Position numbers and translations under genes: made by a program. Below are positions 11,752 to 31,180 of a stretch of DNA of 64,000 nt, piece after piece (position 1 is the first letter of the stretch; each line of letters starts with the position of its first letter). This DNA comes from Candidatus Poribacteria bacterium. GTDB lineage: Bacteria; Poribacteria; WGA-4E; JAJDTR01. The stretch is from contig CBDCTK010000002.1 in assembly GCA_965222225.1 (NCBI GenBank), forward strand, positions 1,920,001-1,984,000. The letters run 5' to 3'. The notes beneath the pieces are model-generated. The model worked only from the letters and a program-made list of their open reading frames with translations, made no database searches and was not told the origin of the DNA.

Positions 11752-11764
11752 GCGATTCAGACAA

Positions 11765-13217: not shown

Positions 13218-13373
13218 ACCACCCTTCCCGTTTTCTCGTCTTCCACCCTTCCATCCTTCCCCATTAGCCATTGGTCACTCGCCACTAATCACTGCTTTCT
13301 CCCTTCCCGTCTTCTCGTTTTCCCGTTTTCTGCTTTCCCCCTTCCGCCGCGCCGCCACCGCTGACATTGCCAA

Positions 13374-14191: not shown

Positions 14192-14480
14192 CTGATGCAC
14201 CGCCTTAATTAGAATGATGTAATGGAAAAGCCCGTAGGTTGGGTTGAACGCAAATCCATGACAACGCATACGCGGGAGACCGAGGCTGTCCAGATTCCAT
14301 TACGCACAAAAAGACCGAAATCCAAGTGAAACCCAACACCCGGTAGTAGGCATACTCCGTATGCCGTAACCCTCGTACAGATTACGGCATGACGAAAGAG
14401 ATAGGACTCCCATTAAGTTCCACGCGCAACCCAACCCGCCCCGCACGATAGCAAACACCTTCAACCAGCTCGTAGGAGGG

Positions 14481-14615
14481 GATCAAGCGAATGGATAATG
14501 AGTGCGATAGTAAATCCCGATAGCAATCTTTCTTGCCCCGACTGAGTCCGAACCGGTGCGATACAGATCCCTTAATCCGATCAAGTGAGTGATTAGCGAA
14601 TGCGATAGAGATCCC
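14481..14615 (+). mobile_element. Two GA-hairpin mini-elements (14481-14528, 14579-14615)
   Basis: gatcaa-gc-ga-at-ggata-at-ga-gt-gcgatag-taaatccc; gatcaa-gt-ga-gt-gatta-gc-ga-at-gcgatag-agatccc. Confidence 0.8.
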
Positions 14616-14701
14616 ATTCAAACAATCACCCATCCTTCCACTCTCACCACTAACCACTGGTCACTAGCCACTGCTTCTCTTCCCTCCCTTCCATTCTTCC
14701 A

Positions 14702-17572
14702 CTACTTGATGATGACCATCCGCCGCGACGCCGCATACTCCCCCGCCCGCAATTGATAGAAATAAACCCCGCTCGCAACCGATTCCACGCTCTCGTTCCG
14801 TCCGTCCCAATACGCCGCCCTCCCCCGATCCACATAATACCCCGCCGCCTGATACCCCAGTGCCAATCGCCGCACCGGTGTTCCTTTTGCATCGTAAATC
14901 GCGATGTTCACCTCCGCCCCCTGCGCCAAGCGATACGGTATCCACGTCTCCGGATTAAACGGGTTCGGATAATTCTGCAACAGCACCGTCTCATCCGGCA
15001 TCAACGCGGCAAGCAACTGCTCAAGAAAGTGGATTCCCCGTTCCAAATTCGCATCTCCCACGCCCAAGCCCTGTGCCTGCGCGAGCCATCCCGCGACATC
15101 CGCGGCGCTAATAATCGACAGGTCTAAGGAATACGCCGAAGGTGCCGCACCGCCGCCCCCAATTGCCCCTGCAACCTGAACAAGGTCAAGAATATTCACC
15201 ACGCCATCCCCGTTCACATCGGCATCGTTCTCGCCGGTTTCTCCTAAGTTTGCGGCGACCTGCACCAAATCCAAGATGTTCACCTCTCCATCACCGTTGA
15301 CATCCTCGACGCGTGGCGGAGGCTCAATCACCTGCCCATCTACAATGCTAGGATATCCACGCTCCTTCTTGGAATTCACCACATTGACATCGAATAACGT
15401 CAAACTGGACGGTTTAATGGCGAGCACCTCAAACGTGAGTGCGGCGAGCGTGCCATCGCCTTCACTTGCTCCGGCGAATGCCGTCCCGCCGAGCGTCACG
15501 CGATTCTCCTTAACTAACTGCGACAGAAAGAACGAATCCGCCGGCAGATAGTCTCCCTGGGCCGCCTCAACATACCGCAGTGCCGTGGAATCGAAGTTGA
15601 CACTTGCCTGATAACCCACCACATCTTCCCCAGCGGTGATGTCAAGTGATAGCGAAAACTGCTCTCCAACCCGTGGGGATGTGACAACGGTGGGCGTAAT
15701 GCTGACCGTCGAACTCACTGCGGGAGAAGAAAAAACAACGTCCCAAAGCAACACCGGCCCGCCCAAACTCCCGCTCGCAAGTGTCCTGCCATCCGGACTG
15801 AACGCCACGCCGGTAACGATGGTACGGTGGTGACCCGTGAACGAGGCTTCAACTCCACCCGTCGTGGCATTCCAGAGACGAACCGTCGAGTCGTGACCGC
15901 CTCTGGCAATCGTCCGGCTATCTGGACTGAAAGCAATATTGCTGTTTTCGTACCCATCACCGACCTGTGCCGTCCGCTTCGTCCAAAAAAGAGTGTCCCA
16001 CAGTATAAGTTCACGGGAAGTCCCGCTGGCAAATACGCGCCCATCTCGACTAAACGCCACACTGACCACCTCATCGTTGTGTCCGGTAAGCGTGCGTTGA
16101 CGTTCGCCGGTTTCGACATCCCATAGCGTCACGCTGCGATCTTTACTTCCAACGGCAAGCGTATCCCCATCCCGATTGAACGCTAGGCTCGTTATTTCCG
16201 CGATATGCCAAGGAAGCGAATGCAAAAGTTCGCCCGTTTCGACATCCCAGAGTAGTGCCGTTGATCCGGCACCGTTGGCAAGCAGCCGTCCATCCGGGCT
16301 GAACTCCAGGCTGCGATACTCGCCCCGAGGTCCAGTGAGTGTGTTAAGCAGCTCGCCCGAGTTGACATCCCACAAATAGATTTCCCCATTACTCCCACCG
16401 GCAATAATTCCCTTCTCCTGACTGAACGCAACGCCAAAAACATACTTCCAACGCTCGGAGAATGTGCGTAAACGTTCCCCCGTGTTGGCATCCCACAGAA
16501 ATATATTCCCATTATTACTCGCACTGGCAATCATCCTGCTGTCCTCGCTGAACGCCAGACCGGTAGTTCTAGCGGTATGCTCGGTGAACACGTGCTTTTG
16601 TTCGACTGTTTCCGTATCCCATAATCGCAATGTCCCGCCGGCGCTCGCGCTGACAAGCCTCCCTCCGTCTGGGCTGAACGCTAGGGTAGTGATGTGCGTT
16701 CTGTGCCCGCGGAATACTCTCAGGAATTGGTCAGTAGTGGCATCCCACAGCCCCACGCTTCCGGGTATGTCCCCAATCGCAACCATGTTCTTCTTTACAT
16801 TGTAGGCGCTGACTAGCGTGCCTCCATACTCGAAGCTTTTACTCAGCAGTTGGCCCGTTGCGGCATCCCATCGTCGTATTCCATCCGAACCGCCACTGAC
16901 AAGCATACTGCCATCGGCACTGAACGCTACGAAGGTGACCCCGGGCGAATGCCCCGCGCCCGTCCACAGATTCTGACCCGTGTTGACATCCCAAAGCCGT
17001 ACCGTCTCGTCCCTATAACCGCTGTTGCTGGCGATGGTGCTGCCATCCGGACTGAATGCAATGCTATCGACCAGCCCTGTATGCCCGGTGAGTGTGCGCA
17101 GATGTTCACCGGTTTCGGTATTCCATAGTCGCACCGTGTCGTCCCAACTCCCACTGGCAAGCGTTTTGCCATCCGGGCTGAACGCGACACTACTGACCTT
17201 TTCCGTATGCCCGGTGAGTGTGTGCAAATGTTCACCGGATGTAGCGTTCCACAGTTGCACCGTCATGTCTCCAAAATCCCCGCCGCTCGCAAGCATCTCG
17301 CCGTCTAAACTGAACGCCACACTCGTGACCCAGCCCGGGTGCCCGATTAACAGCGCCTCCTCTTTGAACGTCTCGGCATCATAGAGCCAGATACCGATAG
17401 TAGTCGCGACAGCGATCCGGGCGCCGTCCAGGGAATACGTAATCCCATTCACCGTACCCTTACCCAGACGTGCTCGAGCGCCTTCCGGCAGATGCCATCG
17501 TGTGTAATCTTGGGCGAAGCTGTTGAGCGTAAACAGAGCCAGAACAATAAGCAATGTAACCGTTACCTTCAT
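14702..17572 (-). CDS. Secreted WD40-repeat protein with cohesin, dockerin and C-terminal NYPNPFNPETWIPY (FlgD-Ig/T9SS-CTD-like) domain
   Basis: Signal peptide, about 14 GH..V.SVAFSPDG..LASG repeats, cohesin, DVNGDGEVNILDL x2 and CTD. Confidence 0.85.
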   Translation of the reverse strand: MKVTVTLLIVLALFTLNSFAQDYTRWHLPEGARARLGKGTVNGITYSLDGARIAVATTIGIWLYDAETFKEEALLIGHPGWVTSVAFSLDGEMLASGGDFGDMTVQLWNATSGEHLHTLTGHTEKVSSVAFSPDGKTLASGSWDDTVRLWNTETGEHLRTLTGHTGLVDSIAFSPDGSTIASNSGYRDETVRLWDVNTGQNLWTGAGHSPGVTFVAFSADGSMLVSGGSDGIRRWDAATGQLLSKSFEYGGTLVSAYNVKKNMVAIGDIPGSVGLWDATTDQFLRVFRGHRTHITTLAFSPDGGRLVSASAGGTLRLWDTETVEQKHVFTEHTARTTGLAFSEDSRMIASASNNGNIFLWDANTGERLRTFSERWKYVFGVAFSQEKGIIAGGSNGEIYLWDVNSGELLNTLTGPRGEYRSLEFSPDGRLLANGAGSTALLWDVETGELLHSLPWHIAEITSLAFNRDGDTLAVGSKDRSVTLWDVETGERQRTLTGHNDEVVSVAFSRDGRVFASGTSRELILWDTLFWTKRTAQVGDGYENSNIAFSPDSRTIARGGHDSTVRLWNATTGGVEASFTGHHRTIVTGVAFSPDGRTLASGSLGGPVLLWDVVFSSPAVSSTVSITPTVVTSPRVGEQFSLSLDITAGEDVVGYQASVNFDSTALRYVEAAQGDYLPADSFFLSQLVKENRVTLGGTAFAGASEGDGTLAALTFEVLAIKPSSLTLFDVNVVNSKKERGYPSIVDGQVIEPPPRVEDVNGDGEVNILDLVQVAANLGETGENDADVNGDGVVNILDLVQVAGAIGGGGAAPSAYSLDLSIISAADVAGWLAQAQGLGVGDANLERGIHFLEQLLAALMPDETVLLQNYPNPFNPETWIPYRLAQGAEVNIAIYDAKGTPVRRLALGYQAAGYYVDRGRAAYWDGRNESVESVASGVYFYQLRAGEYAASRRMVIIK

Positions 17573-17636
17573 CTGAGGCACCACCTTTCCTAATTTGAAT
17601 CATGTGAAATACGCGAGCCCGTAGTTTGTAGGTTGG

Positions 17637-17673
17637 GATCAAGCGACTGAACAAGGAGTGCGATAGAGATCCT
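17637..17673 (+). mobile_element. GA-hairpin mini-element, single unit
   Basis: gtaggttgg-gatcaa-gc-ga-ct-gaaca-ag-ga-gt-gcgatag-agatcct. Confidence 0.85.
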
Positions 17674-17912
17674 CACTCGCCCGACAATGGTAGGCGGGGC
17701 ATCTTGCCCCGCCGGATTGTGGCTAGCCCATAGGTTGGGAACAAGCGACTTTCTTCCGCGTAATCTGCGATTCAGACAATCACCCATCTTTCCCCCTTCC
17801 CATCCTCTCGTTTTCCCTTTTTCCGGTCTTCCGCCCTTCCCTCCTTCCAATCTTCCCCTCCTCCCGATTTCTCCCGTTCCCGTTTCTGCTTTACCGCCCT
17901 TCCAACCTTCCA

Positions 17913-20372
17913 TTACTTCACAATCACCATCCGCCGCACCGCCGCATAATCCCCCGCCCGCAACCGATAGAAATAAATCCCGCTCGCAACGTACTCCCCG
18001 CTCTCATTCTGCCCATCCCAATACGCCGCCCTCCCCCGCTCGGCATAATCCCCCGCCGCCTGATTCCCGAGCGCCAACTGCCGCACCAGTATCCCCTTTG
18101 TGTCATAAATCGTAATCGCCACCTCCGCCTCCCGCGCGAGACGATACGGTATCCATGTCTCCGGATTGAAAGGATTCGGGTAATTCGGCAATAGCGTCGT
18201 CTCTTTCGGTGTCAACGCCGCAAGCAACTGTTCAAGAAAGTGGATTCCCCGTTCCAAATTCGCATCTCCCACGCCCAAGCCCTGTGCCTGCGCGAGCCAT
18301 CCCGCGACATCCGCGGCGCTAATAATCGACAGGTCTAAGGAATTCGCCGAAGGTGCCGCACCGCCGCCCCCAATTGCCCCTGCAACCTGAACAAAGTCAA
18401 GAATATTCACCACATCATCCCCGTTCACATCGGCATCATTCTCGCCGATTTTCCCTAAGTTTGCGGCGACCTGCACCAAATCCAAGATGTTTACCTCGCC
18501 ATCCCCGTTGACATCGCCCATCGAGAAATCCTCGATAGTCGAAGGGGCGAGATCCCACACCAGCACCGTGCCGTCCCAACTGGCGCTCGCAAGCGATGCC
18601 CCATCCGGGCTGAACGCAACGCCGGTAACCCCGCCCGCATGTCCGCGCATCGAGCGCAACGATTCGCCGGTATCGACATCCCACAGCCGCACTGCCGCGC
18701 TGGAGCTCCCCCAAGCCAAGGTTCTACTGTCCGGACTGAACACGGGGACGCAGGCTTCGTTATAATGTCCCTCAAGCGTGTGTATCGGCTCCCATGTCTC
18801 GGCATCCCAGAGTATAGCATTACGAGTAGACGCACTCGCCATTTTTCTGCCGTCTCGACTGAACGCCACACCGACGAGCTCGTGAGTATGTCCGGTGAGT
18901 GACCACAGATGACGTCCCGTTTTGGTGTGCCAGAGCGACACCGTGCCGTCCTTGCTCGCACCGGCAAGCATAACACTGTCTGAACTGAACGCGACGCTCA
19001 TTACGTCCCTCGTATGCCAAGCCAGTGTATGCAACAGTTCACCCGTATTGGTGTCCCAGAGCCGTATGGCATGGTCTTGATAACCGCCGCCACTGGCGAC
19101 CGTGCTCCCGTCCGGGCTGAATGCGACGGCGCGCGTATTTCTCAAATCCCCGGTCAGTATGTGCAGAAGTTCACCGGTTTTGGCGTTCCACAGGCGGATT
19201 TCGCTAAGACTGGCGACAGCAATCTTCGTGCCGTTCACGTTAAAGTCTAAGGAGGTACCGAAGCCTAAAAGACCTGTCAATTTGTTAAGAATTCGCCCCG
19301 TTCTAAGGTCCCACAGCCGCACGGAATGTTCCAGGTGCCCTGTCGCTATGCTGCTCCCGTCAGGGCTAAACGCCAAACTCATCGGCCACACCGTGTGCGC
19401 CGTGATGGCGCCCTCCTGTAGTCCCGTCTCCGTATCCCAAATCCGCACCGTTCCGTCCTCGCCCGCACTGGCAAGCTTCGAATCGTCCGGGCTGAATGCG
19501 ATGGATACCACGATAGATGTGTGCCCGCGGAGCGTCATGAGATGCTTTCCCGATCCGGAATTCCAGACAACGGTTTTACTGCCATTGCCAGCCGCAACAG
19601 CGCTGCCGTCCGGGCTGAAAGCTACGCTTCTGACCGTAGATCCGGACGCTCTTAGCTCATGCAGAACTGCCCTCGTGTTGGGATTCCAGAGTCGCACCGT
19701 GCTGTCCCAACTCCCGCTCGCAAGCGTACCGGTTCGGCTGAATGCCACATCTGTAACGGGACGCGTATGCCCTCTTAGCGTATGTAGATGCAATCCTTTT
19801 CGCACGTCCCAAATCTTCACCATGTTGTCATAGTCTCCCGCGGCAAGCGTACTACCATCCGGGCTGAATGCCACGCTCGAAACAAGAGTTGTATGCCCCT
19901 CAAGCGCCCGAAGACGCGCACCGGTTTGGGCGTCCCGGAGATACACCCCACCCACGCGATCCGCGCTGGCAAGCGTTCTGTCATCCGGACTGAATGCTAC
20001 ACTCTCGATTGTCGAAGAATGTCCTGTGAACGTCCGCAAATGCTCGCCCGTTTTCGCATCCCAGAGACGCACCGCACCGCCGCCGCTGACCAGCCTCTCA
20101 CCGGTTGAGTCGAACGCGATACTACTTGCCCAACGTGGTTTATCAGTTATCAGCGTAACTTCCTCAAGCGTCTCCGTATCGTAGAGCCAAATGCCGATAG
20201 AACTGGCGACGGCAAGTCGTGTCCCGTCAGGAGAAAATTTGATTTCATGAATCTTCCCTTTACCCAGTCTCACCTTGGCATTATCGGGCAGAAGCCATCG
20301 CGTATAATCCTGAGCGATGCCGTTGATCGAAAGCACAGCCAATACAAAGAGCGACACAACCGCTATCTTCAT
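17913..20372 (-). CDS. Secreted WD40-repeat protein with dockerin and C-terminal NYPNPFNP domain
   Basis: 819 aa; same architecture as its neighbour but without cohesin. Confidence 0.85.
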   Translation of the reverse strand: MKIAVVSLFVLAVLSINGIAQDYTRWLLPDNAKVRLGKGKIHEIKFSPDGTRLAVASSIGIWLYDTETLEEVTLITDKPRWASSIAFDSTGERLVSGGGAVRLWDAKTGEHLRTFTGHSSTIESVAFSPDDRTLASADRVGGVYLRDAQTGARLRALEGHTTLVSSVAFSPDGSTLAAGDYDNMVKIWDVRKGLHLHTLRGHTRPVTDVAFSRTGTLASGSWDSTVRLWNPNTRAVLHELRASGSTVRSVAFSPDGSAVAAGNGSKTVVWNSGSGKHLMTLRGHTSIVVSIAFSPDDSKLASAGEDGTVRIWDTETGLQEGAITAHTVWPMSLAFSPDGSSIATGHLEHSVRLWDLRTGRILNKLTGLLGFGTSLDFNVNGTKIAVASLSEIRLWNAKTGELLHILTGDLRNTRAVAFSPDGSTVASGGGYQDHAIRLWDTNTGELLHTLAWHTRDVMSVAFSSDSVMLAGASKDGTVSLWHTKTGRHLWSLTGHTHELVGVAFSRDGRKMASASTRNAILWDAETWEPIHTLEGHYNEACVPVFSPDSRTLAWGSSSAAVRLWDVDTGESLRSMRGHAGGVTGVAFSPDGASLASASWDGTVLVWDLAPSTIEDFSMGDVNGDGEVNILDLVQVAANLGKIGENDADVNGDDVVNILDFVQVAGAIGGGGAAPSANSLDLSIISAADVAGWLAQAQGLGVGDANLERGIHFLEQLLAALTPKETTLLPNYPNPFNPETWIPYRLAREAEVAITIYDTKGILVRQLALGNQAAGDYAERGRAAYWDGQNESGEYVASGIYFYRLRAGDYAAVRRMVIVK

Positions 20373-20434
20373 CTAAAGCACCACCTTTCCTGATTAGAGA
20401 AATTTCATGTTTCTATAGTCAACACTGTAGGAGC

Positions 20435-20507
20435 GATCAAGCGAGTGGATAGTGAGTAAGATTTTCTATCGCCTTCCCTATTCGGTTAGTTGATCGATAG
20501 AGATCCT
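20435..20507. mobile_element. GA-hairpin mini-element with a second copy inserted in inverted orientation
   Basis: gatcaa-gc-ga-gt-ggata-gt-ga-gt|[revcomp of atcaa-ct-aa-cc-gaata-gg-ga-ag-gcgatag-aaaatctt]|cgatag-agatcct. Confidence 0.8.
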
Positions 20508-20700
20508 CACTCGCCCGTTAATGGTAGGCGGGGCATCTTGCCCCGCCGGATTGTGGCTAGCCCGTAGGTTGGGAACAAGCGACTTTCTTCCGCGTAATCT
20601 GCGATTCAGACAATCACCCATCTTTCCCTCCTTCCAATCTTCCCCTCCTCCCGATTTCTCCCGTTCCCGTTTTCTGCTTTACCGCCCTTCCAACCTTCCA

Positions 20701-23700
20701 TTACTTGATAATCACCATCCGCCGCACCGCCCCATAACCGCCCGCCCGCAACCGATAGAAATAAACCCCGCTCGCAACGTACTCCCCGCTCTCATTCCGC
20801 CCATCCCAATACGCCGCCCTCCCCCGATCTGCATAATACCCCGCCGCCTGATGCCTAAGCGCAATTTCACGCACCGTCGCGCCAGTCCTGTCATAAATCG
20901 TAATCGACACCTCTGCCCCCTGCGAGAGGTGATACGGTATCCACGTCTCCGGATTGAACGGGTTCGGATAGTTTGGCAACAGCATCGTCTCTTTCGGTGT
21001 CAGCGCCGCAAGCAACTGTTCAAGGAATTGTATTCCTCGTTCTAACCTTGCATCGGTAAACTTCAATCCTTGTGCAAGAGCGATCCAGCTTTTGACATCT
21101 GCGGCGGTTAGGGTTGACAGAGCGTGGGGATACGCAGTAGGTGCCGCACCCCCGCCAATAGTCGTGGCAACCGTAACCAGGTCAAGGATATCCACCACGC
21201 CGTCCCCGTTAACATCGGCATCATTCTCTCCGGTTTTCGTAAAGTTCGCGGCAACCTGCACCAAATCCAAGATATTGACGGCACCATCGCTGTTGACATC
21301 CCCCCATACCCGCGGCGGAGTTGGCGGAGTTATCTCGGAGACAACCGTAAAGGTCGTCCTCTCTTCAATTGGGGCAGCCGAAACGGTCACGGTGATTGTC
21401 CCCATGTGTTGCCCCATGGTGAGAACGCTCTGCGCCCGACCATCGGCATCGGTTGTTGTGTTTGTTGGGCTGAGCCTCGCGCCGCCATCGGGAATGCTAA
21501 ACGACACCGGAACGCCTTCAAACACGTCGCCGTGCTCGTCCCGAACTTCAACCACGAATGGAACTTGCAGTGGGATGGATGGCACCCCCCGCTGTCCTTC
21601 GCCCGAGATCGCCCGAAGTGTTGTGGGTATACGGTTAATAAAGGATACCGTTACCCCTCTGTTCTGCAGGAGTGGAATGTGTGAGTTGACGGCCTCTTTA
21701 TTTAGGGGGTTTTTTCGTAAAAACAGCGTATCCCCGTCACCCAATCCCGGGTTGGCTGCCAACGGCGAAATGTCCGAAATCGAGTTCACGGCAAGATGAA
21801 GCGTTGTTAAGTTAGTCAAACCGGTGAGTGCTGAGGTATCCGACACCTTGTTTCCTGCAAGAAAGAGTAGCTCCAAGTTGACCAATGCGGACAGCGGCGA
21901 GATGTCGGAGATGTTGTTGTTGGTGAGACGTAGCGATGTCAGCTTGGTTAAGCCCTTTAAGGGGGACAGATCGGAGATGTAGTTGTTATCGTACAGGTGT
22001 AAAGATTTCAGATCGGTTAATCTCGCTAAAGGGGCGATGTCAGAGATGTTGTTTTTCTCAAGGGATAGCGTTCGAAGTTTGGTTAACCCTGCTATGGGCG
22101 AGAGATCCACGATGTTGTTTTCGTCAAGCGAAAGGCGTTCTAGATTGGTTGCAAACTCAAGCCCGGCCAATGCAAAAATAGAGGCCTCCCTAGCGTAAAA
22201 CTCTGTCAACATCGCTAAATCATCGTGCGTTATTTCGGCTCCTGCCTCCTTACCAAGAGAAATTCGCAGGGCTCTGCGGAGACTCGCATCGGGCACCGTC
22301 TGATTACCGAGGGGTGTCCATGCGGATGTTTTCCATAGCTCAATAGTGGGAGTGAACCCATCCCATGTGGCGGCGGCGAAATGCTTTCCGTCCCGAGAAA
22401 ATGTCAGACTTTCAACCTGTCCCGGAATCCCAAGAGTGGCGATATGTGCGCCTGTTTCCCAATCAAGGAGTTTTATATCCCTCAGACCGACAGCCAAGAT
22501 ATCCCCTGCGGGCGAAAACGCCGTATGGAGCAGAGCATTAGACGGATCGCCGAACGAGGCGGAAAGCTCTGCTGTTTCAACATCCCACAGTTTGACTGAG
22601 AAATCATTTGCACCCGAAGCCAATGTCCTACCGTCGTGCGAAAACGACAACGAACGTATATCTTTGGTATGCCCCTCAAGCGTGGCTACGTTCCTTTCCG
22701 TTTCAATGTTCCACAGCTTGATTGTCGCGTCGCTAGACCCGGAAGCGAGGATGTTCCCGCTAGGGGCAAATGACAGAGACCTGACCTCATCCGCATGCCC
22801 TTCAAGTGTGGCGACGCTGCTTCTTGTCATGACATCCCACAATCTAATCGTCCGATCTCCGGACCCGGACGCTAGTATTTTCCCATCGGGCGAGAACGCC
22901 ACACAGTAGACCGAAAACGAAAAGAAATGCCCGGCAAGCGTATCAATGTGCGTTTTCGTTTCCATGTCCCACAGCATGACCGTGGCGCCCACCGTACCAA
23001 CAGCGAGCATCCTTCCATCGGGTGAAAACGCCAACGAAGTCGGCGCTTCGCGGTACGACGTGGCATGATGAAAAACGTCAAGCATTTTTCTCATCTCCAT
23101 ATCCCATAGTATGATTCTGTTGTCATTAGTCGCAGATGCGAATATTCTGCCATTAGACGAAAACGCCAAAGATTTTACCTGTTTCTCATGCTCGGTGAAT
23201 GTAGCGATGTGGCCTGGTGTAGCTTGGTAGAGACGTACATATCTCGTGGAGACGTTTCCGTGAATATCAACCGCTTCAATCAAAATTGGATGTATATTCG
23301 GATCAGACAAACTTCCAAATCCACTAGACGGAATGACACCATCGTAATCAAACCGTACTACCGCATTCTCTTCTCCTGCGAATTCGCGGCACGAAACAAC
23401 CTCGCGAGATCCCGCGGCATCGTGAGGTTTCTTTGTAGTGACATATAGGAGCGCATGGTGAACGCCGTTGGAATCGTTAATATTAAGTTGCACAGTGACG
23501 CTTTTTGCCCCTTTCGGATATTGGTGCGGGGAAATGAGTTCTATGGTCGGGTACAATCTCCGATTAGCTTTCACTAATTCGACGATGTTATCAGCATTTC
23601 TGAGTTGCCGTATCTCATGGTCGTACATTACATCGTCCACCGGGACATTGGGATCAAAATAGGAGTGCACCCCGAGGAAGTTGGCGCTGCACGCGGATAG

Positions 23701-24381
23701 TTCATCGCGTGCTTCACCATACGACATTATGTATGCATCGTCACGAAAATCGTGCTGCAAACCGAAGGCATGACCAAGTTCATGTGCGGCAACCTCAAAT
23801 TCAAACTCCCCGGGAAGCAGGGCGTATCCGGCGATTTTGTTATGTTTAAGCCCATATCCTTTAACGCCAAACAACGGTCCAATCCTCTCACGGTGATTGT
23901 CTATTACAATCATGTGGATATTAACATTGACATCGAACAGCGCTCCAATCTCGGCAAGCGTAGTGCCCGCCACATCGCTCTTTTGGTAGTAACTATTGCG
24001 ATGTTGCCCATCCACACGATGAACCAGCGGTTCCCCTTGGGCGTCGGTTTCAACCCGGAAGGTTCTGGCACCGTGACCGTGCGCCTGCATCTGTTCTCTA
24101 TAGAAGGCTTGAATCCGTCGAATCTCGTCCTTCATGCGCTGCATCACTTCGGGACGAAAACCTTGGTCATTGGGAAGAAAGTAGACGAGCCTGACGGTGC
24201 GAGGTTCCCCGACATCCGCATTTGCCAGACTTCGGGCATAACGCCGGTTATCATGCTGCAACTCAATCGGCGCGACGTTGCCCCCTTGCGGCGGCACCGA
24301 ACCCGGTGCCAATTCCGGCGCGAAAAAACAAAAAACGGCGGCAACCGAAAACAATACGAAACAGAACAGATGCGATCTCAT
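20701..24381 (-). CDS. Large secreted multidomain protein: zinc metallopeptidase (HELGHAFGLQH) + WD40 + LRR + Ig-like + dockerin + NYPNPFNP CTD
   Basis: Motifs visible in the translation. Start placed at MRSHLF (signal peptide) because the ORF-track extension runs through repeats. Confidence 0.85.
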   Translation of the reverse strand: MRSHLFCFVLFSVAAVFCFFAPELAPGSVPPQGGNVAPIELQHDNRRYARSLANADVGEPRTVRLVYFLPNDQGFRPEVMQRMKDEIRRIQAFYREQMQAHGHGARTFRVETDAQGEPLVHRVDGQHRNSYYQKSDVAGTTLAEIGALFDVNVNIHMIVIDNHRERIGPLFGVKGYGLKHNKIAGYALLPGEFEFEVAAHELGHAFGLQHDFRDDAYIMSYGEARDELSACSANFLGVHSYFDPNVPVDDVMYDHEIRQLRNADNIVELVKANRRLYPTIELISPHQYPKGAKSVTVQLNINDSNGVHHALLYVTTKKPHDAAGSREVVSCREFAGEENAVVRFDYDGVIPSSGFGSLSDPNIHPILIEAVDIHGNVSTRYVRLYQATPGHIATFTEHEKQVKSLAFSSNGRIFASATNDNRIILWDMEMRKMLDVFHHATSYREAPTSLAFSPDGRMLAVGTVGATVMLWDMETKTHIDTLAGHFFSFSVYCVAFSPDGKILASGSGDRTIRLWDVMTRSSVATLEGHADEVRSLSFAPSGNILASGSSDATIKLWNIETERNVATLEGHTKDIRSLSFSHDGRTLASGANDFSVKLWDVETAELSASFGDPSNALLHTAFSPAGDILAVGLRDIKLLDWETGAHIATLGIPGQVESLTFSRDGKHFAAATWDGFTPTIELWKTSAWTPLGNQTVPDASLRRALRISLGKEAGAEITHDDLAMLTEFYAREASIFALAGLEFATNLERLSLDENNIVDLSPIAGLTKLRTLSLEKNNISDIAPLARLTDLKSLHLYDNNYISDLSPLKGLTKLTSLRLTNNNISDISPLSALVNLELLFLAGNKVSDTSALTGLTNLTTLHLAVNSISDISPLAANPGLGDGDTLFLRKNPLNKEAVNSHIPLLQNRGVTVSFINRIPTTLRAISGEGQRGVPSIPLQVPFVVEVRDEHGDVFEGVPVSFSIPDGGARLSPTNTTTDADGRAQSVLTMGQHMGTITVTVSAAPIEERTTFTVVSEITPPTPPRVWGDVNSDGAVNILDLVQVAANFTKTGENDADVNGDGVVDILDLVTVATTIGGGAAPTAYPHALSTLTAADVKSWIALAQGLKFTDARLERGIQFLEQLLAALTPKETMLLPNYPNPFNPETWIPYHLSQGAEVSITIYDRTGATVREIALRHQAAGYYADRGRAAYWDGRNESGEYVASGVYFYRLRAGGYGAVRRMVIIK

Positions 24382-24437
24382 ATTCTTGCTCCATTGACTA
24401 ACTGTAATTGTGAATGCTACGTGACTCTGAAGGGTGC

Positions 24438-24672
24438 GACCAACTGACTGATTAAGGAGGGCGATAGAAAGTCCCGATAGAAATCCCATGAAGCACTGCG
24501 AAAGCCAACTCCTCTGTAGGAGCGACCTCCTGGTCGCGACAAGACCGAGCAATCAAACGGGATCAAACGAGTGGATAGCGAGCGATCAACTGAGTGAATA
24601 ACGAAGGATCAAAGTAGCGGATAGCGACTGCGATAGCTAATCCCATACTAGATCCCGTGCGATAGAAATCCT
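24438..24672 (+). mobile_element. GA-hairpin mini-element clusters (24438-24487, 24551-24672) flanking an intact REP GTAGGAGCGACCTCCTGGTCGCGAC
   Basis: Up to four stacked left parts followed by three right ends. Confidence 0.75.
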
Positions 24673-25033
24673 AGGTTACCTAGCCCGATAGCTAGTAGTA
24701 ATACGTTAGGTTGGATTGAACAACGCGAATCCCAACTGTAGGAGGGAAATCCGATTCCCGACCTTCCGACGTCCCTTGTAGCGTGCGATTAACGATCAAC
24801 CGACTGAAAAACAATCAGGCGACTTTAATCTACGAAATCCCTTGATCTCACTAATCATAGTTCAGACAATCACCCCATCTTCCTGCCTTCCCATCTTCCC
24901 CTATTCCCCACTCGCCATCACACGAGTGGATAACGTCCAAGCGCCTTCAATCCGCGTAATCTGTGATTCAGACAATCACCCATCCTTCCTCATTCCCGAT
25001 TCGCCTCTTTCTTTACTGACCACTAACCACTAG

Positions 25034-26119
25034 TCACTCGCCACTACTTCCCTTCCCCTCCCCCTGACTCATCGCCTCTCCGCGCAACAGAAACGCCCGA
25101 ATATCATACCGACCCGGACGCTCCACCGGCAGCGCCCCCTCATCAATCATGACATCCAGCGGCGAGACCTGCGTCCTCACCGGCATCGCCACCACCTCGT
25201 GCATCCGCGCCGATTCGTAGATTGCCATGATAATCTCGACCGCCGCCATGCCATTCTCGGCTCTCCCCCGGTGTTCCGCCTTCCCTTCAATCCAGTCCAC
25301 CAACTCCCGCGCCTGCGCCACAGAGGGTTCCTCGCCCTCGCGCCTGCGCTCCTCCCATCGCCCCGTCCGACCGCTGAGCAGACGCACCCTAGCCTCATCC
25401 AGATACAAGATGCCGTCGCTGCCGTAGAAGACGCCGCCTTGGCGGCCCTCACCGCCCAACTCCTGGAGCAACTGCCCAATCGCGCCGTTATCGAACCCGA
25501 TAATCCCCGCGCTCCGGTCCTCAATCCGAGTGTCCCGCTCATAGCGGTCCGTCTTCCGCTCGACATTCCCGATCACCCATTCGGCGTTGGGGTCGCCCAT
25601 CACGAAACGCATCATATCGAAGATGTGAGAACAGTCGTTGAGCAATCCCTGCCTCCCCACCGCCGTGACATGCTGCACCTGACCGATAGCGCCGTCGGCG
25701 ATGAGATCGCGCGCCTCGTTCCAGGCAGGATTGAAACGCCGTTGATGACCGATAGCCAACTTCACTCCGTTCCGTTGGGAGGCAATCATCATCTCGTTGC
25801 ACTCCCCCATGCAAGTCGCCATCGGTTTCTCGCAAAGCACCGCCTTCGGTTTGCGGGCACAGATGGCGATGGTGATAGGCGCGTGCAGCTTGTGCCAAGT
25901 GGCGTTGCTGACAATGTCCAGGTCCTCCTCATCCAGCATCTGCCGAAAATCCGTGTATCTGTTCTCGATTCCGTACTGGTCGCCGAAGGCGTCAGCCGCC
26001 GTCTGCACCGGATCTGCCAGAGCCACCATCTCCACGTTGTCAAGTCCTTGGTAGCCGCGCGCATGAAGGTTAGCTATGCTGCCGCAGCCGACAATCCCGA
26101 CACGATATTTCCCTGCCAT
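25034..26119 (-). CDS. Gfo/Idh/MocA-family oxidoreductase
   Basis: GIVGCGSIA, VLCEKPMA and GHQRRF motifs. Confidence 0.9.
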   Translation of the reverse strand: MAGKYRVGIVGCGSIANLHARGYQGLDNVEMVALADPVQTAADAFGDQYGIENRYTDFRQMLDEEDLDIVSNATWHKLHAPITIAICARKPKAVLCEKPMATCMGECNEMMIASQRNGVKLAIGHQRRFNPAWNEARDLIADGAIGQVQHVTAVGRQGLLNDCSHIFDMMRFVMGDPNAEWVIGNVERKTDRYERDTRIEDRSAGIIGFDNGAIGQLLQELGGEGRQGGVFYGSDGILYLDEARVRLLSGRTGRWEERRREGEEPSVAQARELVDWIEGKAEHRGRAENGMAAVEIIMAIYESARMHEVVAMPVRTQVSPLDVMIDEGALPVERPGRYDIRAFLLRGEAMSQGEGKGSSGE

Positions 26120-26239
26120 GATTCCCGTCCTCCGTTAGTTATTCCAACCCTTCGAGTGACTGATTTTGCTCGACTTTGTGCATTTGTAGCATTTGTAGGG
26201 TGCGCAGTGCGCACCAGCCTTTGATGAAAGCGCAGCAGC

Positions 26240-26307
26240 AATCAAGCGACTGGATAAGGATCAAATGAGTGAACAACGAATGCGATAGTTAATCCTTATA
26301 GAGATCC
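26240..26307 (+). mobile_element. GA-hairpin mini-element, nested pair
   Basis: aatcaa-gc-ga-ct-ggata-ag gatcaa-at-ga-gt-gaaca-ac-ga-at-gcgatag-ttaatcct tatag-agatcc. Confidence 0.8.
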
Positions 26308-26834
26308 AACGAATCACAGTTCAGACAATGTCAAATACTGACACCCAACACTTACCTTATTCTCTTAGCGAAAATTCCGCTTATGAACCCGTGCATATAG
26401 CATATATTGTATTATTATAATAAATGCCATACTATATATTGATGTTTATGTGAACGACTAACAGCGATGGTGATTAACACTCGTCAATCGAAAATCTCGC
26501 TCTGCCGGTTTTCCCGTTTGCTAGTCCTCCAATCTTCTGCCCTTCCCCATTAACCACTGGTAACTGCTTCTCTTACATCCTTCCCCACTAGCCACTGGCA
26601 ACTGGTCACTGACCACTGTTTCTCGTATTCCACCCTTCCAATCCCATTTATTGAGACGACTTGTTGCGCCGACCTAACACGCTATATGTCATTGAAAATC
26701 ATGCGCCCAAAATTAGGTTCTGTTGACATTTCATCGTCACCAGATTATTGAGGGAGGCATAAATAGGTGCGTTCATATAATCAAATTGGGTAAAGCGACC
26801 GAGTTTGTGTTAAATGAGGGGGGCAAGAAGAATA

Positions 26835-26864
26835 CTATCGCATTCGCCATTCGCTCATTTGATC
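26835..26864 (-). mobile_element. GA-hairpin mini-element
   Basis: Minus strand gtaggg-gatcaa-at-ga-gc-gaatg-gc-ga-at-gcgatag. Confidence 0.75.
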
Positions 26865-27253
26865 CCCTACGATTGAGGCAGAGTTTGCGCTCAATGAAAC
26901 GCGGCATACGCCGGCAGCCGTAGGCGTTGGGTCTCCCAACCCGTTGGGTGCCTCCCTCGATTTACGCGCCCGCCTAACATAAATGTCAACACAACCTAGC
27001 CCCAATGGTCATGAAAGCAACGTCAATGTGCGATTCGACTTTGCGGTTGGTGGCAACCACCTTTTCATACCAAAATTTCATACCTACCTCTCAACGACCA
27101 CACCGTCAAAACCGCAAAAAATCCAGTCATAGCAAAGGTTTCCACCCTCTTTCCATCTCCCTCCAAAACCCCCATTTGGTATGAAAAGTATGAAATTCCC
27201 CAAGCGTACTAAACGACACCCTTCACGTCCCACGCAGTCCTTTTGTAGGGTGG

Positions 27254-27360
27254 GATCAAAGGAATGAATAATGACTGATCAAACGAGTGGATAACGATCA
27301 AGTGACCGGATAGGGAACGCGATAGCAAATCCCGTGCGATAGAAATCCCATAGAGATCCC
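27254..27360 (+). mobile_element. Triple nested GA-hairpin mini-element
   Basis: Three left parts then three right ends in reverse order; the XX/X'X' pairs match when un-nested. Confidence 0.85.
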
Positions 27361-27426
27361 CTTCCAATCTTCATCGCCACCCTCCCGATTTTCTCGTCCT
27401 CTCCTCTTCCATCCTTCCTCTCCCAT

Positions 27427-28383
27427 TTATCGCGATGACGTGCGATTGTAATTCCCAACTTTCCACGACCCACCCGTCGATTCGTAACGAACCCCCCGCG
27501 GCGGCAGAAACCGCCGAAGATGCCGACACCCGTAGGCGAACCCCTCCAATCCCGGCATACCCCGGTCCTCATTCTCGACGCACAGCACATAGTCGTAGCC
27601 CGACTCGACCAGCGCACCGACCACCGTCCCCCAATTCAAATCCCCGCGCCCCGGCACGCGATACTGCCACCACCAGTTGCCGATAATGCCTTGCCGGTAC
27701 AGCATCCGCGGACTAACCTCGCAGTCCTTCACATCCGCATAATACCACTTGCCCGCATACTCGCGAATCACATCTTCAGCCGGCATAATCATCATCCACA
27801 CCCAGTGCGACGGATCGCAAGACAAGCCCAAGTGATCCGAGGGCACCGCGTCCAAAATCTTCTCCCACATCTCCGGATTGCAACCGATATTCCCCATGCG
27901 CACCGCCACATCAAGGGCAATCTTGATATCCTTATCCTCCGCGGCGTTGACCACCGGCGCGAACATCTCCGCGAAACGCCCCACCAACTCGTCCGAGCGG
28001 TCGCTTACGTTTCCCGGCGGGTACGAGTACGTGCCGTAGAACCGCCCGTTCACCACCGGCGACCCGCTCCCCGTAACCACCACCGGGCACTCCAGCACCG
28101 CCGCCGACTCGATTGCCCGTATCAAACGGCTCTGCTCCGCTGTGCTCACCTCCGCTCTGTCATCCAGCAAGTTGCAGTGCGAGGTGACACAAGCCAAATA
28201 CAGGTCATGCCGGTTCAACGTCTCCAACACCTCATCCGGCCCCTCGCTGAGAATGCGGTTCGACTCCAGCACGCCCCTGTCAGACAGTCGCACGCAATCA
28301 AAGTCGTGCTCACTTGCCCAGGCAGCGCATTTCTCCAAGCTCCATGTGCCGTCGCCGGCACTCGTCTGAAAACTTATATCCAT
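27427..28383 (-). CDS. Sugar-phosphate isomerase/epimerase (xylose isomerase-like TIM barrel)
   Basis: LGLSCDPSH, ADVKD, PGRGDLNW and GYDYVLCVENED motifs; SD GGAGGG before MDISF. Confidence 0.8.
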   Translation of the reverse strand: MDISFQTSAGDGTWSLEKCAAWASEHDFDCVRLSDRGVLESNRILSEGPDEVLETLNRHDLYLACVTSHCNLLDDRAEVSTAEQSRLIRAIESAAVLECPVVVTGSGSPVVNGRFYGTYSYPPGNVSDRSDELVGRFAEMFAPVVNAAEDKDIKIALDVAVRMGNIGCNPEMWEKILDAVPSDHLGLSCDPSHWVWMMIMPAEDVIREYAGKWYYADVKDCEVSPRMLYRQGIIGNWWWQYRVPGRGDLNWGTVVGALVESGYDYVLCVENEDRGMPGLEGFAYGCRHLRRFLPPRGVRYESTGGSWKVGNYNRTSSR

Positions 28384-28451
28384 TTCCCCTCCACTGAGAT
28401 ACGAACAAGGCTCTCCCCGTAGGGGTTGGGTCTCCCAACCCGTTGCGTACC

Positions 28452-28607
28452 AATCAACTGAGATCGAGGGAGTGAATAACGACCGCGATAGCGCTCCCAT
28501 CGTGACCGACAAGCCAACTACTGTAGGAGCGACCTCCCGGTCGCGACCAATAAAGCGAGCGAATAGCGATCAAGCGACTGGTCACTGAGCGATCAAAGAA
28601 CAGATAG
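28452..28607 (+). mobile_element. GA-hairpin mini-element clusters (28452-28500, 28549-28607) among REPs
   Basis: gatcga-gg-ga-gt-gaata-ac-ga-cc-gcgatag-cgctccc and others. Confidence 0.7.
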
Positions 28608-28753
28608 TTCGTAGGGTGGGCACTGCCCACCATTTGACCTACGCCACGATTATCAAATCGCCGCTTTCCTCTTTTACCGCCCACCATTTCAATGCGGCGC
28701 AATCCACATTCGCCAAATCAAAGCGCTAGATAGAGCTGTAGGGTGCGCACCGC

Positions 28754-28826
28754 GATCAAGCGAATGAATAATGAGTGATCAAAGCAATGAATAATGACTG
28801 CGATAGAAAATCCTGATAGAAATCCT
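28754..28826 (+). mobile_element. Nested GA-hairpin pair interrupting REP GTAGGGTGCGCACCGCG(C)ACC
   Basis: ccgcg|atcaa-gc-ga-at-gaata-at-ga-gt g|atcaa-ag-ca-at-gaata-at-ga-ct-gcgatag-aaaatcct|gatag-aaatcct|accagcc. Confidence 0.85.
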
Positions 28827-28837
28827 ACCAGCCTTTT

Positions 28838-31180
28838 TTAAAGACGACTGTCTCTCGGCTCCAGCCGCTGATGCGATTCCGCTTCCAATCGAATTTGCTC
28901 CCAATCCCAAAGCTGCGGAATATATTCGACATTCGCCCAAGCCTCCGCCTGATCCGCATAATGCACGCTTGCCGGATGCCCCGACGCCCCCAACGGCACA
29001 ATCCACCGAGATTTCGTCCAATCCGACGGGTCATGGATATACCGATTCACCGACATGCTCGTTGCGACAAACTCATTCTGCAGCCCGTAGCCTCCGGCGA
29101 TCGGCGTGTCCCCGTCACCGTGAGTCGAAACCGAGGGCGGATCCAAGCCTTCGGCAGATTCCGGAAATACCGCCGACAACGGGTGACGCGGATCCGTACG
29201 GTGCATCCGCCCCCACCGCCATTGGGACATATCCTCCCCCAGCATATCCCTTAGTTCCCCGACCGCGCGACTGAGACTCCCAGCCAGCAACTCCTCCCAG
29301 CCGGTTTCGGGAGGCAACATGGACGCATCGCCCCGTCCAAGCCCCAGCGTCATCTGCTCGACGATTTGACGAAGGACGGTCGTGCTGCCGGCAGCTTCCG
29401 AGAGTACCTCCGACGCAAAATCCCCCAACAGATGCTCGACGACCCGGCGGATGAGGTGCACCTTTGTCTTGGCGTAGATGAGCGGCTGCGCCAAATCGCG
29501 ATCAATGCGGAAATCCCATTCCCGCATCAAAGCGAGCGCAGCCTCCGACTCTGCGTCAAGCGGCTCAACGCCGATCAATGCCCGCGTAAAGACTCGCGCC
29601 GGCTCGGAGATTCTGTCGGCGTGGATGCGCGCCATGTCGCTCACCGTCGCCGTCTTCGGTTCAAGTGCGAGGATGCCCGCTTGCACCCGCCGCGCGCGGT
29701 GTTCCGGAGTGAAACACAACCCCACATAGTAGGGGTAATCGTGCCCCGCCACGCGCTGATTGCAGGTGACCGCATACCCCGCCTCCGGGTTGATGGCTTT
29801 GGGCAATTCGTTGTGCGGAATGTAGCCGTCCCATTCGTACTCGCCCGTCCAACCGGGCACCGCACGCCATCCGTTCGCCTCCCCCCGAATCGGAATCTTG
29901 CCCGCGTGGATATAGCCGAAGTTCCCGTCTACATCAGCCACCGCATAATTGTTGACGCGGTCCGTCCAATGCCGAAAGGCTTCGTGCAAATCGGCGACCG
30001 ATCGACTTTTCATGGCATCGAGCGCGGCGTCCACCCAATACGACCCGTCAATCAGTCCGGGGTCGCTGATTGCCACGCCGACGCCCGTCGCCGGATCACC
30101 CGCAATCACGGGCCCATGATGTGTGATCGTCACCTCAAGCTCTACCGAATCCCCTCCGCGTGCATCAATCGTCTCGTTCAGCACCTCCGCCTCGCGCCAT
30201 TCATCCTTGAACCGATACTCGCGTCCGTCCGGTGTTTCCCGGAACTGTTCGATGAACAAATCCTGTGTATCCGCGCTGCCATAGGTCATCCCCCACGCCA
30301 CATGGTCGTTGTGACAAAAGTGGAGAGCGCCCGGCATCCCCGGCACCGAATGCCCAATAACCGAGAATTCGGGGCACGAGAGGTGAATCTGATAGTAGAC
30401 GCTCGGCGTGTCCAGCGCACGGTGCGAGTCGCCCGCAACCAGCGGCAATCCCGACGCCGTCAGCTCCCCGGAGATCGACCACGCATTCGATCCGAAATCG
30501 GTCTCATTCAGCCAGTTCACCTCTTCCGCGGCTCTCGTGAGTTCCTCAAGTCCGTTCAGCGGTGCGCCTTCATACACGGCGCCCGGAGGCACCGTGAGCA
30601 GGTGTCCGGCGGGATAGCCCTTGATTAGACTCGCCGCCCTCTCCCCGCCAACCGCAATCGCCAGCCTCGTCATGAACAGCTTCGGCTCGAATGTGCCCAA
30701 TAGCGTGTTGCGCATCTTGTAGACGGCGAGGCAGTGCCAATTCTCCCACCGTTCCGGCCGCTCGTCCAAGAGTTTGTACTCAATCGGGATGGTCCTTGTC
30801 GTATCAATAAAGGCGTTCACGCCAGCCGTATAAGCATCGACCATAGACTTTGCGGCGGGACTGGCAAGCTTGCAATCCAGTTTCGCCGTGCGTCCCATGC
30901 CCGCCGCCCGCAGCAGACGGTCTCTCTCAACCCCGCTCGCTCCGGAGAATTCCGACCATCTTCCGAGCGCTTGGTGCCGGTCAAAATCCATGTGCCACAG
31001 CCGATCTTGGGCGGTCGCGAACCCTTGCGCGAAGAACAGATCCGCCTCGTTCTCGGCTCGAATATGGGGAATCCCCCACCGATCTCGGTACACCTCCACA
31101 GCCGCGCCGAGTTCGGGCAGCCGCATCGTCGTGGTGAGTTCGGGCAGTGCGGATTTGAAGTCGTTCTCGGTAATCTTCAT
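28838..31180 (-). CDS. Penicillin acylase-family Ntn hydrolase
   Basis: RDRWGIPHI, AQGFATAQDRLW, GSNAW (Ser nucleophile) and GASGHPASVHYADQ motifs. Confidence 0.9.
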   Translation of the reverse strand: MKITENDFKSALPELTTTMRLPELGAAVEVYRDRWGIPHIRAENEADLFFAQGFATAQDRLWHMDFDRHQALGRWSEFSGASGVERDRLLRAAGMGRTAKLDCKLASPAAKSMVDAYTAGVNAFIDTTRTIPIEYKLLDERPERWENWHCLAVYKMRNTLLGTFEPKLFMTRLAIAVGGERAASLIKGYPAGHLLTVPPGAVYEGAPLNGLEELTRAAEEVNWLNETDFGSNAWSISGELTASGLPLVAGDSHRALDTPSVYYQIHLSCPEFSVIGHSVPGMPGALHFCHNDHVAWGMTYGSADTQDLFIEQFRETPDGREYRFKDEWREAEVLNETIDARGGDSVELEVTITHHGPVIAGDPATGVGVAISDPGLIDGSYWVDAALDAMKSRSVADLHEAFRHWTDRVNNYAVADVDGNFGYIHAGKIPIRGEANGWRAVPGWTGEYEWDGYIPHNELPKAINPEAGYAVTCNQRVAGHDYPYYVGLCFTPEHRARRVQAGILALEPKTATVSDMARIHADRISEPARVFTRALIGVEPLDAESEAALALMREWDFRIDRDLAQPLIYAKTKVHLIRRVVEHLLGDFASEVLSEAAGSTTVLRQIVEQMTLGLGRGDASMLPPETGWEELLAGSLSRAVGELRDMLGEDMSQWRWGRMHRTDPRHPLSAVFPESAEGLDPPSVSTHGDGDTPIAGGYGLQNEFVATSMSVNRYIHDPSDWTKSRWIVPLGASGHPASVHYADQAEAWANVEYIPQLWDWEQIRLEAESHQRLEPRDSRL

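Follow-up and report, generated by a model that had tools for sequence, protein, structure and literature searches.

The stretch of DNA analysed here, called the window, comprises 64,000 nucleotides of a Candidatus Poribacteria genome (GenBank assembly GCA_965222225.1, contig CBDCTK010000002.1, positions 1,920,001 to 1,984,000). At 27255-27360, between the genes for a GFO/IDH/MocA oxidoreductase and a xylose-isomerase-like TIM-barrel protein, inspection of the window sequence showed three units of a short non-coding repeat on the plus strand, each lying inside the next. Such clusters very probably arose when members of a single family of non-coding mobile elements, each only about 34-37 nt long, inserted into one another, and the unit would be one of the smallest self-targeting mobile DNAs seen in bacteria. 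All positions are window coordinates unless a contig of G000, the genome of the window, or of G005, its closest relative, is given. The features discussed are collected in Table 1.

Across 499 solo copies, the consensus of the unit is (gcG)ATCAA-xx-GA-yy-GRATA-y'y'-GA-x'x'-GCGATAG-(N)A(R)ATCC(C). The dinucleotides xx/x'x' and yy/y'y' form two 2-bp helices that flank a tandem G.A/A.G mismatch, and ATC is able to pair with the GAT of GCGATAG. The original prediction had placed the ends of the element at ATCAA and TCCY. The ATCAA start proved to be fixed, but the 3' end is ragged, ATC(C)(C/T).

In the focal cluster, the sequence reads exactly as predicted, with three levels of nesting. It had also been proposed that removal of the innermost unit restores the middle one. 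Excision does bring the ac of the middle unit beside its gt, with which it pairs, but one A of the second GA is absent from the restored unit. The left copies are spaced by 23 and then 19 nt and have 67-81% identity to the first copy, and the sole call of Tandem Repeats Finder at this place was a two-copy 11-nt array of right ends (27339-27360). The cluster is not a regular tandem array. The host sequence on its 5' side, GTAGGGTGGG, is known in its uninterrupted form, GTAGGGTGGGCACTGCCCACC, from 48 occurrences in the genome. A matching 3' arm of this apparent repetitive extragenic palindromic (REP) sequence was not evident beyond 27360.

Table 1. Features of the focal cluster, further nests in the window and the genes bounding the focal cluster; junction distance is the distance of the inner start from the outer start.
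Feature	Position	Strand	Remarks
Host sequence 5' of focal cluster, GTAGGGTGGG	27245-27254	+	Resembles 5' arm of GTAG-tagged REP hairpin; insertion target of outer unit
Outer unit, left part: ATCAA ag GA at GAATA at GA ct G	27255-27277	+	Hairpin complete; interruption after foot G, junction distance 23
Middle unit, left part: ATCAA ac GA gt GGATA ac G	27278-27296	+	Interruption within 3' arm, junction distance 19
Innermost complete unit, 37 nt: ATCAA gt GA cc GGATA gg GA ac GCGATAG caaATCCC	27297-27333	+	gt/ac and cc/gg stems both pair
Middle unit, right part: gt GCGATAG aaATCCC	27334-27349	+	gt complements middle ac after removal of inner unit
Outer unit, right part: ATAGAGATCCC	27350-27360	+	CG of GCGATAG absent
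Two-level nest, unit in loop of outer hairpin	51150-51221	-	Outer left 51210-51221 (ATCAA gc GA ac G), inner 51173-51209, outer right 51150-51172 (ACA gt GA gt GCGATAG agATCTT)
Two-level nest in 3' arm of GTAG REP (GGGTGCGCACCGCG^...ACCAGCC)	28755-28825	+	Outer left 28755-28777, inner 28778-28814, outer right 28815-28825
Two-level nest	11680-11751	+	Outer left 11680-11702, inner 11703-11739, outer right GATAGcaaATCC 11740-11751
Two-level nest, outer unit beginning CTCAA	5579-5661	+	One surplus right end, ATAGaaATCCC, 5651-5661
Three-level degenerate nest	9035-9140	+	Starts are AACAA and TCAA variants; last right end mutated
Stack of four left parts (24552, 24562, 24585, 24608), then three right ends	24552-24672	+	Outermost ac (cut after 10 nt) pairs with gt of last right end
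Unit inserted just past another's loop (junction distance 17), plus third unit after GCG of outer right end	13124-13230	+	
Xylose-isomerase-like TIM-barrel gene	27427-28512	-	Bounds focal cluster
GFO/IDH/MocA oxidoreductase gene	25034-26119	-	Bounds focal cluster

The evidence that carries the nesting interpretation comes from outer units whose hairpin is cut by an inner unit. There are 124 such units in the genome, of which 67 could be scored, the scorable cases being those in which the next NN-GCGATAG lies 5-22 nt past the inner GCGATAG. The check proposed beforehand was that outer halves pair again after excision of the inner unit. The outer xx fully complements the downstream NN in 49 of the 67 nests, compared with 25.5±3.1 for permuted partners and a maximum of 37 over 5000 permutations. 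This result holds when every combination of outer and inner unit is counted once (46 of 62 pair, against 23.2±3.0) and when every outer-left sequence is counted once (28 of 41, against 15.7±2.4). For insertions into the loop, yy matches the y'y' beyond the inner unit in 11 of 13 cases. In other Poribacteria genomes (578 kb), 15 of 23 nests pair, while permutation gave 7.4±2.0 with a maximum of 14. The claim of sequential insertion is supported by split stems that re-pair genome-wide, after de-duplication and in other Poribacteria. The 67 testable nests comprise 63 distinct combinations of outer and inner unit, one of which occurs 4 times.

Inner units start at preferred distances from the outer start, with peaks at 23 (124 cases), 12 (56), 19 (56), 17 (34), 10 (25), 18 (25) and 25 (13), and the base ahead of the nested inner unit is nearly always G. 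A second right end follows directly after the unit in 74 of 119 insertions at the hairpin foot and in 61 of 133 inside the hairpin, compared with 83 of 682 solo units. The original prediction had stated that n left parts are followed by n right ends in reverse order. This is the commonest pattern, but it is not universal and not a rule. A cruder count of right-end tokens, with means of 0.84, 1.37 and 1.58 for stacks of one, two and three left parts, was replaced because its search pattern missed 258 of 807 solo tails.

Further nests of the same kind occur in the window (Table 1), where left cores (ATCAANNGANNGRATA, at most one mismatch) number 70 compared with 0.71 expected and a shuffle maximum of 3, and right ends number 28 compared with 1.84 expected. 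A unit in the loop of another on the minus strand, placed at 51151-51222 by the prediction, was found at 51150-51221, and its gc/gt and ac/gt halves pair after excision. The same logic had been extended to 5580, 9035, 11679 and 28754. The nests starting at 5579, 11680 and 28755 have two levels, with a complete outer hairpin and the outer right end after the inner tail. The nest at 9035-9140 does have three levels but is degenerate, and one of its two outermost pairs is mismatched. Units also occur in tail-to-tail pairs at 20436-20494 and 56527-56585, in which one unit has lost its GCGATAG tail and its hairpin lies directly against the tail of an inverted unit.

The hairpin of the unit was examined with a set of 126 distinct units, ten from the window and 116 from other Poribacteria loci, collected with a pattern that left the stem positions free. 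The four proposed pairs are standard in 96.6% of the cells, compared with 66.6±1.4 in shuffled sets and 23-60% in slid controls, and double-sided stem changes number 154 compared with 27.7 after shuffling. Independently, RNAalifold recovered the same four pairs together with an invariant ATC/GAT helix. Among 522 exact units, G.T wobbles outnumber A.C mismatches by 217 to 20, which indicates that the ATCAA strand is the folding strand. The case for this predicted hairpin lies in covariation and not in energy.

The genome of the window (5.70 Mb in two contigs, GC content 0.50) contains 829 exact and 1494 near-exact left cores. The 522 exact units carry 166 different hairpins, and the sub-families reach 47 copies with an identical hairpin. 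Larger composite repeats that carry units as passengers supply part of the copy number. One composite repeat, in which a GTAG REP is followed by ACCAGCCTCTAAAAGCCCCAGAG and then by ACAGGTATGTAGCAGCCAACAATGAAAACATG, is present in several copies (G000 C2 about 2709521, 2721244, 4780182 and 5377274). Its copies differ in unit number and nesting level and thereby provide natural comparisons with and without a unit.

The taxonomic distribution of the unit was assessed with exact 29-nt matches in 151 genomes of the phylum, in which a reversed control pattern gave no match. All ten genomes of the genus to which the window belongs contain 330-824 copies, and all four genomes of one genus (g4) of another family contain 115-139. 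Five further genomes have low numbers of 1-14 copies each, namely one of genus g2, three of g6 and one of g12. The remaining genomes of the phylum scan, including all 100 of the largest family, had no copy. In a scan of one genome per prokaryote species, all of the matches listed were metagenome-assembled genomes of Candidatus Poribacteria. A scan of viral contigs for the unit returned no match, nor did Rfam 15 at gathering score in the 64-kb window, and full-text searches of the literature gave no paper on Poribacteria repeats.

Since the host repeats are multi-copy, a paralogous empty site, which shares the 14-nt left flank but lacks a unit, could be identified for 275 units. All of these empty sites are paralogous and none is orthologous. 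Within 72 non-self hosts, the net gain is mostly +34 (29 cases), +35 (27) or +33 (8), and the remaining eight span +32 to +45. The pairs of filled and empty sites show no target duplication, and 0-3 host bases are gone on the 3' side. In one example, an empty site reading GTAGGGTGCG, CA, CTGCGCACC corresponds to a filled site in which 36 nt stand between GTAGGGTGCG and CTGCGCACC. The loss of CG from the outer right part of the focal cluster matches the class with two bases missing and 36 inserted, while the class with none missing and 23 inserted is an artefact, as its seed matched the tail of the inner unit itself. The 5' junction is fixed, with GTAGGGTG[CG]G directly followed by ATCAA in 69 of 74 cases. 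A G precedes ATCAA in 88% of the 499 solo copies, and there is little upstream motif beyond [CG]G.

The favoured targets are GTAG-tagged REPs, a second REP family and, above all, resident units in the same orientation. The left contexts of the 1494 units include 430 (29%) within a unit on the same strand, 55 (3.7%) within a unit on the opposite strand and 41 in tandem after a tail. A further 257 follow a GTAG tag, 86 lie in the REP GCCCCAGnGGGG^CGACAGG, 24 in the 3' arms of GTAG-REPs and 601 elsewhere. According to crude gene calls, units fill about 4.6% of the non-coding DNA (1494 x 36 nt in 20.6% of 5.635 Mb). Self-nesting at 29%, with about 5% expected, therefore represents a roughly six-fold and strongly co-oriented enrichment, in agreement with the predicted preference for existing copies. 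Self-insertion takes place at a few positions, which lie in the loop, along the 3' arm and at the hairpin foot. Of the two GA motifs, the first offers a G (distance 8) that was used in only 3 cases, compared with 56 for the G of the second (distance 19), an asymmetry which points to recognition of the resident copy by its 5' half.

Crude gene calls show no bias of unit orientation towards the flanking genes, with 510 co-directional and 437 antisense units and a further 213 and 234 between convergent or divergent genes. On chromosome C2, unit orientation varies with whether the local 100-kb GC skew is positive or negative, whichever strand the genes are on. After masking of the units and collapsing of same-strand neighbours to 863 loci, which are not fully independent, an odds ratio of 0.33 was obtained. 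Plus-strand loci lie in regions of positive skew in 156 cases and of negative skew in 311, and minus-strand loci in 239 and 157, so that the ATCAA strand is the C-rich strand in about 64% of the loci. As the ATCAA strand of the units is itself G-rich, this association cannot stem from the units. The skew profile is patchy with many sign changes, and the direction of replication is thus inferred only. Two DDE transposase open reading frames (44001-44798 and 46023-47042, plus strand) lie at the point at which the gene strand changes together with GC skew and unit orientation. A replication origin at the strand switch of the units, at about 40-44 kb, was considered and rejected, since this region contains ordinary genes and the two DDE transposases and no DnaA.

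Candidate enzymes were sought in carrier and non-carrier genomes. For reverse transcriptase, six of the ten genomes of the genus, including the one with 824 copies, had no match at E<=1e-5, and the RVT_1 matches in three of the nine other genus members were weak and not co-distributed with the unit. The unbiased orientation towards genes, the link to GC skew and this absence of reverse transcriptase from six of ten genomes together argue for DNA over RNA. Y1 transposase genes are present in all ten and all four genomes of the two carrier genera, and the Pfam family Y1_Tnp was found in 34 of 41 genomes, non-carriers included. One Y1-like protein of 247 aa (G000 C2:2563962-2564705, minus strand, locus L194) is 99% identical in G005 and missing or fragmentary in most other genus members, which suggests that its gene moved recently. 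A second gene encodes a RAYT-like (REP-associated tyrosine transposase) Y1 protein of 157 aa (G000 C2:3080255-3080728, minus strand) and has the REP AAAGCCCCAGAGGGGCGACAGGTGTATAG on both sides in four genera (loci L163-L178). Near this gene, units occur only as insertions in AAAGCCCCAGAGGGGCGACAGGTGTATAG, often at GGGG^CGACAGG.

For the route of insertion, we tentatively favour single-stranded DNA and a trans-acting enzyme. Units would be multiplied by copy-and-paste at the replication fork, with single-stranded DNA as the intermediate. The copying would be carried out in trans, and Y1/HUH (RAYT-like) transposases are the sole candidate class present in all carriers. Propagation would be limited to copies with an intact hairpin, which would explain the covarying stems and the sub-families. 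New copies land directly 3' of a G, and repeated hits build stacks in which the left parts come first and the right parts follow in the opposite order. A more specific and rather doubtful possibility is that the unit is a near-minimal mobile DNA, a geneless single-stranded hairpin of 35 nt zipped by tandem G.A pairs and copied at the fork by a trans-acting enzyme, possibly a housekeeping or a RAYT-type HUH enzyme, which recognises the 5' half of a folded unit and joins the copy after a downstream G. Recognition of the resident 5' half and joining at a downstream G would make resident copies the best targets and would account for the sites in the 3' half and loop (12, 19 and 23), the scarcity of distance 8 and the co-oriented nests.

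Several results weigh against nested insertion or against the route proposed for it. With regard to nesting, 38-54% of the stacks have no recognisable second right end. Pairing is rarer in restored outer units (49 of 67, 73%) than in inner (246 of 265) and solo ones (656 of 740), perhaps owing to a greater age of the outer copies or to noise in the choice of partners. Excision restores the host exactly only in some cases and leaves it short by 0-3 nt. A same-locus allele with and without a unit was not found. In the closest genome the genes are 5-15% diverged and the spacers cannot be aligned. The contigs of four public runs across 11000-30900 break at repeats and likewise gave no allele. Nearest-neighbour folding of units and of the whole cluster as single-stranded DNA did not recover the covarying hairpin (z -0.88 to +1.65), although such a failure is expected for 2-bp helices around tandem G.A pairs.

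With regard to the mechanism, if GC skew marks replication, the folding strand lies on the C-rich strand, which is opposite to the sense known from IS608-type elements. Among carrier and non-carrier Poribacteria genomes, no Y1 gene is co-distributed with the unit. The 157-aa RAYT-like gene was rejected as mobiliser because genera that lack the unit also have it and because the REP on its flanks is a different one, and the 247-aa Y1-like protein because it occurs in just three of nine genus members. Y1/HUH transposase chemistry is seamless, and the ragged 3' junction of the unit argues against it. Targeting of hairpin tips as a general rule was also rejected, since the flanks of 314 solo units pair over at least 6 bp in only 8.3%, compared with 1.8% in the control.

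An alternative without any dedicated enzyme is that replication stalls at hairpins and the polymerase, at a G, takes another copy as its template and returns by microhomology. Ragged 3' junctions, the lack of target duplication, the preference for hairpin repeats and for the unit itself, the tie of orientation to GC skew and the failure to find a co-distributed transposase or reverse transcriptase are all compatible with such template switching. Nevertheless, copying would have to start exactly at ATCAA, as in the 69 of 74 cases of one host family, and to end within 2-3 nt of ATCC, which is hard to obtain from microhomology alone. Furthermore, high copy numbers in two genera of different families, with traces elsewhere, suggest a transferable factor. 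Enzyme-free nesting is for these reasons considered unlikely.

Nesting by way of an RNA copy and reverse transcription appears improbable as well. Target-primed synthesis would produce junctions with a fixed 5' and a ragged 3' side, and this is the asymmetry observed, including the loss of 0-3 host bases; the restriction of G.U-type wobbles to one strand (217 compared with 20) would also suit an RNA. However, the units show no bias towards gene orientation and follow GC skew, RVT_1 matches are weak and limited to three of the nine other genus members, the 824-copy genome has none at E<=1e-5, and no Rfam family was matched.

That the units are selected functional sites, such as protein-binding or RNA motifs, and the nests a few ancient composites copied within larger repeats, is very unlikely. 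The strong covariation of the stems would be expected for such sites, composites do recur (one combination 4 times), and larger composite repeats do carry units. On the other hand, the 67 testable nests represent 63 distinct combinations, orientation is independent of genes, and units lie inside other selfish repeats that have empty paralogues. The complete turnover of spacers and the absence of the focal nest from the orthologous spacer in all eight relatives, both described below, are also at odds with conserved sites.

Slipped-strand or unequal-crossover duplication of a 23-nt hairpin module and an 11-17-nt tail module without any insertion, which had been named beforehand as the explanation that could overturn nesting, is scarcely credible: left parts do often follow each other at a 23-nt period (124 cases), Tandem Repeats Finder does report the 11-nt array and many stacks do have fewer right ends than left parts (38-54%), but of 37 complete hairpins that adjoin another at a 23-nt period not one repeats its neighbour (differences at 3-9 of the 9 variable positions), the focal spacing changes from 23 to 19 nt, and duplication leaves unexplained both the complementarity across inner units (49 of 67 compared with 25.5) and the lone units in unrelated REP hairpins with empty paralogues.

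Nested insertion of a small hairpin element, as preferred here, has parallels in known systems. The closest analogue appears to be the small dispersed repeats of Nostocaceae cyanobacteria (SDR1-8), although by size and lineage the unit would not be classed as an SDR. In the description by Elhai et al. from 2008, SDRs are reportedly 21-27 nt long, keep their hairpin by compensatory changes and form nested clusters, and an RNA and reverse-transcription route is said to have been proposed for them. To our knowledge, SDRs encode no protein, have no known mobilising enzyme and are the only described parallel to a unit of about 35 nt. Measured against this description, both are very small non-coding repeats with a covariation-supported hairpin that nest in themselves and in other repeats, are restricted to a narrow lineage and encode no protein. 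The Poribacteria unit differs in its size of 34-37 nt (gain of +33 to +35; 37 nt for the inner unit of the focal cluster), in its phylum and in its tandem-GA hairpin sequence. In addition, it follows GC skew without a co-distributed reverse transcriptase, which argues for DNA in contrast to the RNA route proposed for SDRs. SDR5 inserts into HIP1, and SDRs are described as found only in Nostocaceae (PMC5861425).

REP and REPIN elements with their RAYT (Y1/HUH) transposases (PMC3116915) and GTAG/CGTC-tagged REPs (PMC3733652) serve as a second comparison. The unit shares with them the character of a short extragenic hairpin repeat with hundreds of copies, sub-families and an implied single-stranded folding strand, and each of the carrier genomes has genes for Y1 transposases. 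It differs in that its consensus lacks GTAG and CGTC, the GTAG belonging to the host REPs, and in that its stem has only 2+2 bp around G.A pairs. Furthermore, units are not inverted doublets, as seen from the contexts given above (same-strand nesting 430, opposite 55, tandem 41, of 1494), and the RAYT-like gene is flanked by another REP into which the nearby units have been inserted. Unlike miniature inverted-repeat transposable elements, the unit has neither terminal inverted repeats nor target duplication, and its sole symmetry, (G)GATC...GATC(C), consists partly of host bases.

Insertion sequences (IS) of the IS200/IS605 group transpose as single strands, need no terminal inverted repeats, produce no target duplication and insert seamlessly 3' of a specific tetra- or pentanucleotide. 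The unit resembles them in that a hairpin defines it, in doing without terminal inverted repeats and in the absence of duplication. A possible further resemblance lies in insertion 3' of a short sequence (G in 88%) and in a strand bias (odds ratio 0.33 with the 100-kb skew, whose profile is patchy). It differs by having one hairpin instead of two, a target that barely extends beyond G ([CG]G), a loss of 0-3 host bases, a bias opposite in sense to that of IS608 and the lack of a co-distributed candidate for a cognate transposase. IS1397-type insertion sequences use REP hairpins as targets and are full insertion sequences with transposase genes and target duplications. The insertion site is thus shared with the unit, which differs in being 35 nt long, non-coding and without duplication.

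Comparison of the same locus between genomes was limited by the divergence of the spacers. At the orthologous spacer, the nest is absent from all eight relatives in the genus and from one genome of a neighbouring family, but these spacers do not align. Spacers turn over completely between species of the genus. Over 400 kb, G005 (78-95% identity in aligned blocks) and G000 differ by four large indels, and no single-unit difference was found. The spacer of G005 that is orthologous to the focal cluster (locus L128, G005 C1:4831328-4835291) contains about four tandem C/T-rich repeats of about 85 nt and no units. When metagenomes were scanned for a conserved 20-mer next to the cluster, two matches were obtained, neither of which resembles the window outside the 20-mer. 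A contig joint that skips 39 nt at 28775-28815 was rejected as an allele because its sides of 20 nt and its roughly five-fold local depth point to another genomic copy of the same sub-family. Many contigs of the public runs link 26733-26750 to 28417-28421, omitting about 1680 nt and with 29-35 other letters in between, which suggests another dispersed repeat copied at both places. Elsewhere in the window, four large genes with WD40 repeats (819-1283 aa), eukaryote-like in character and one of them also containing leucine-rich repeats, are located at 14702-24552 on the minus strand and 58581-61097 on the plus strand.

Overall, the observation of nested units is confirmed and their interpretation as nested insertions is supported, with corrections for the ragged 3' ends and for the imbalance between left and right parts. 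A geneless mobile DNA of about 35 nt marks the lower size limit of transposable elements, and its high copy number is confined to two genera of an uncultured phylum of sponge symbionts. The options for its mechanism are narrowed by the asymmetry of the junctions, the G target, self-nesting in one orientation, the association with GC skew and the lack of reverse transcriptase. The family is tractable, as about 1500 units in 5.7 Mb with variable stems make single insertion events traceable. If the unit is indeed a minimal mobile DNA, its freely covarying stem dinucleotides would act as lineage barcodes of insertion order. For the Poribacteria themselves, the nests lead to repeat-rich and fast-changing intergenic DNA, at which short-read assemblies break.

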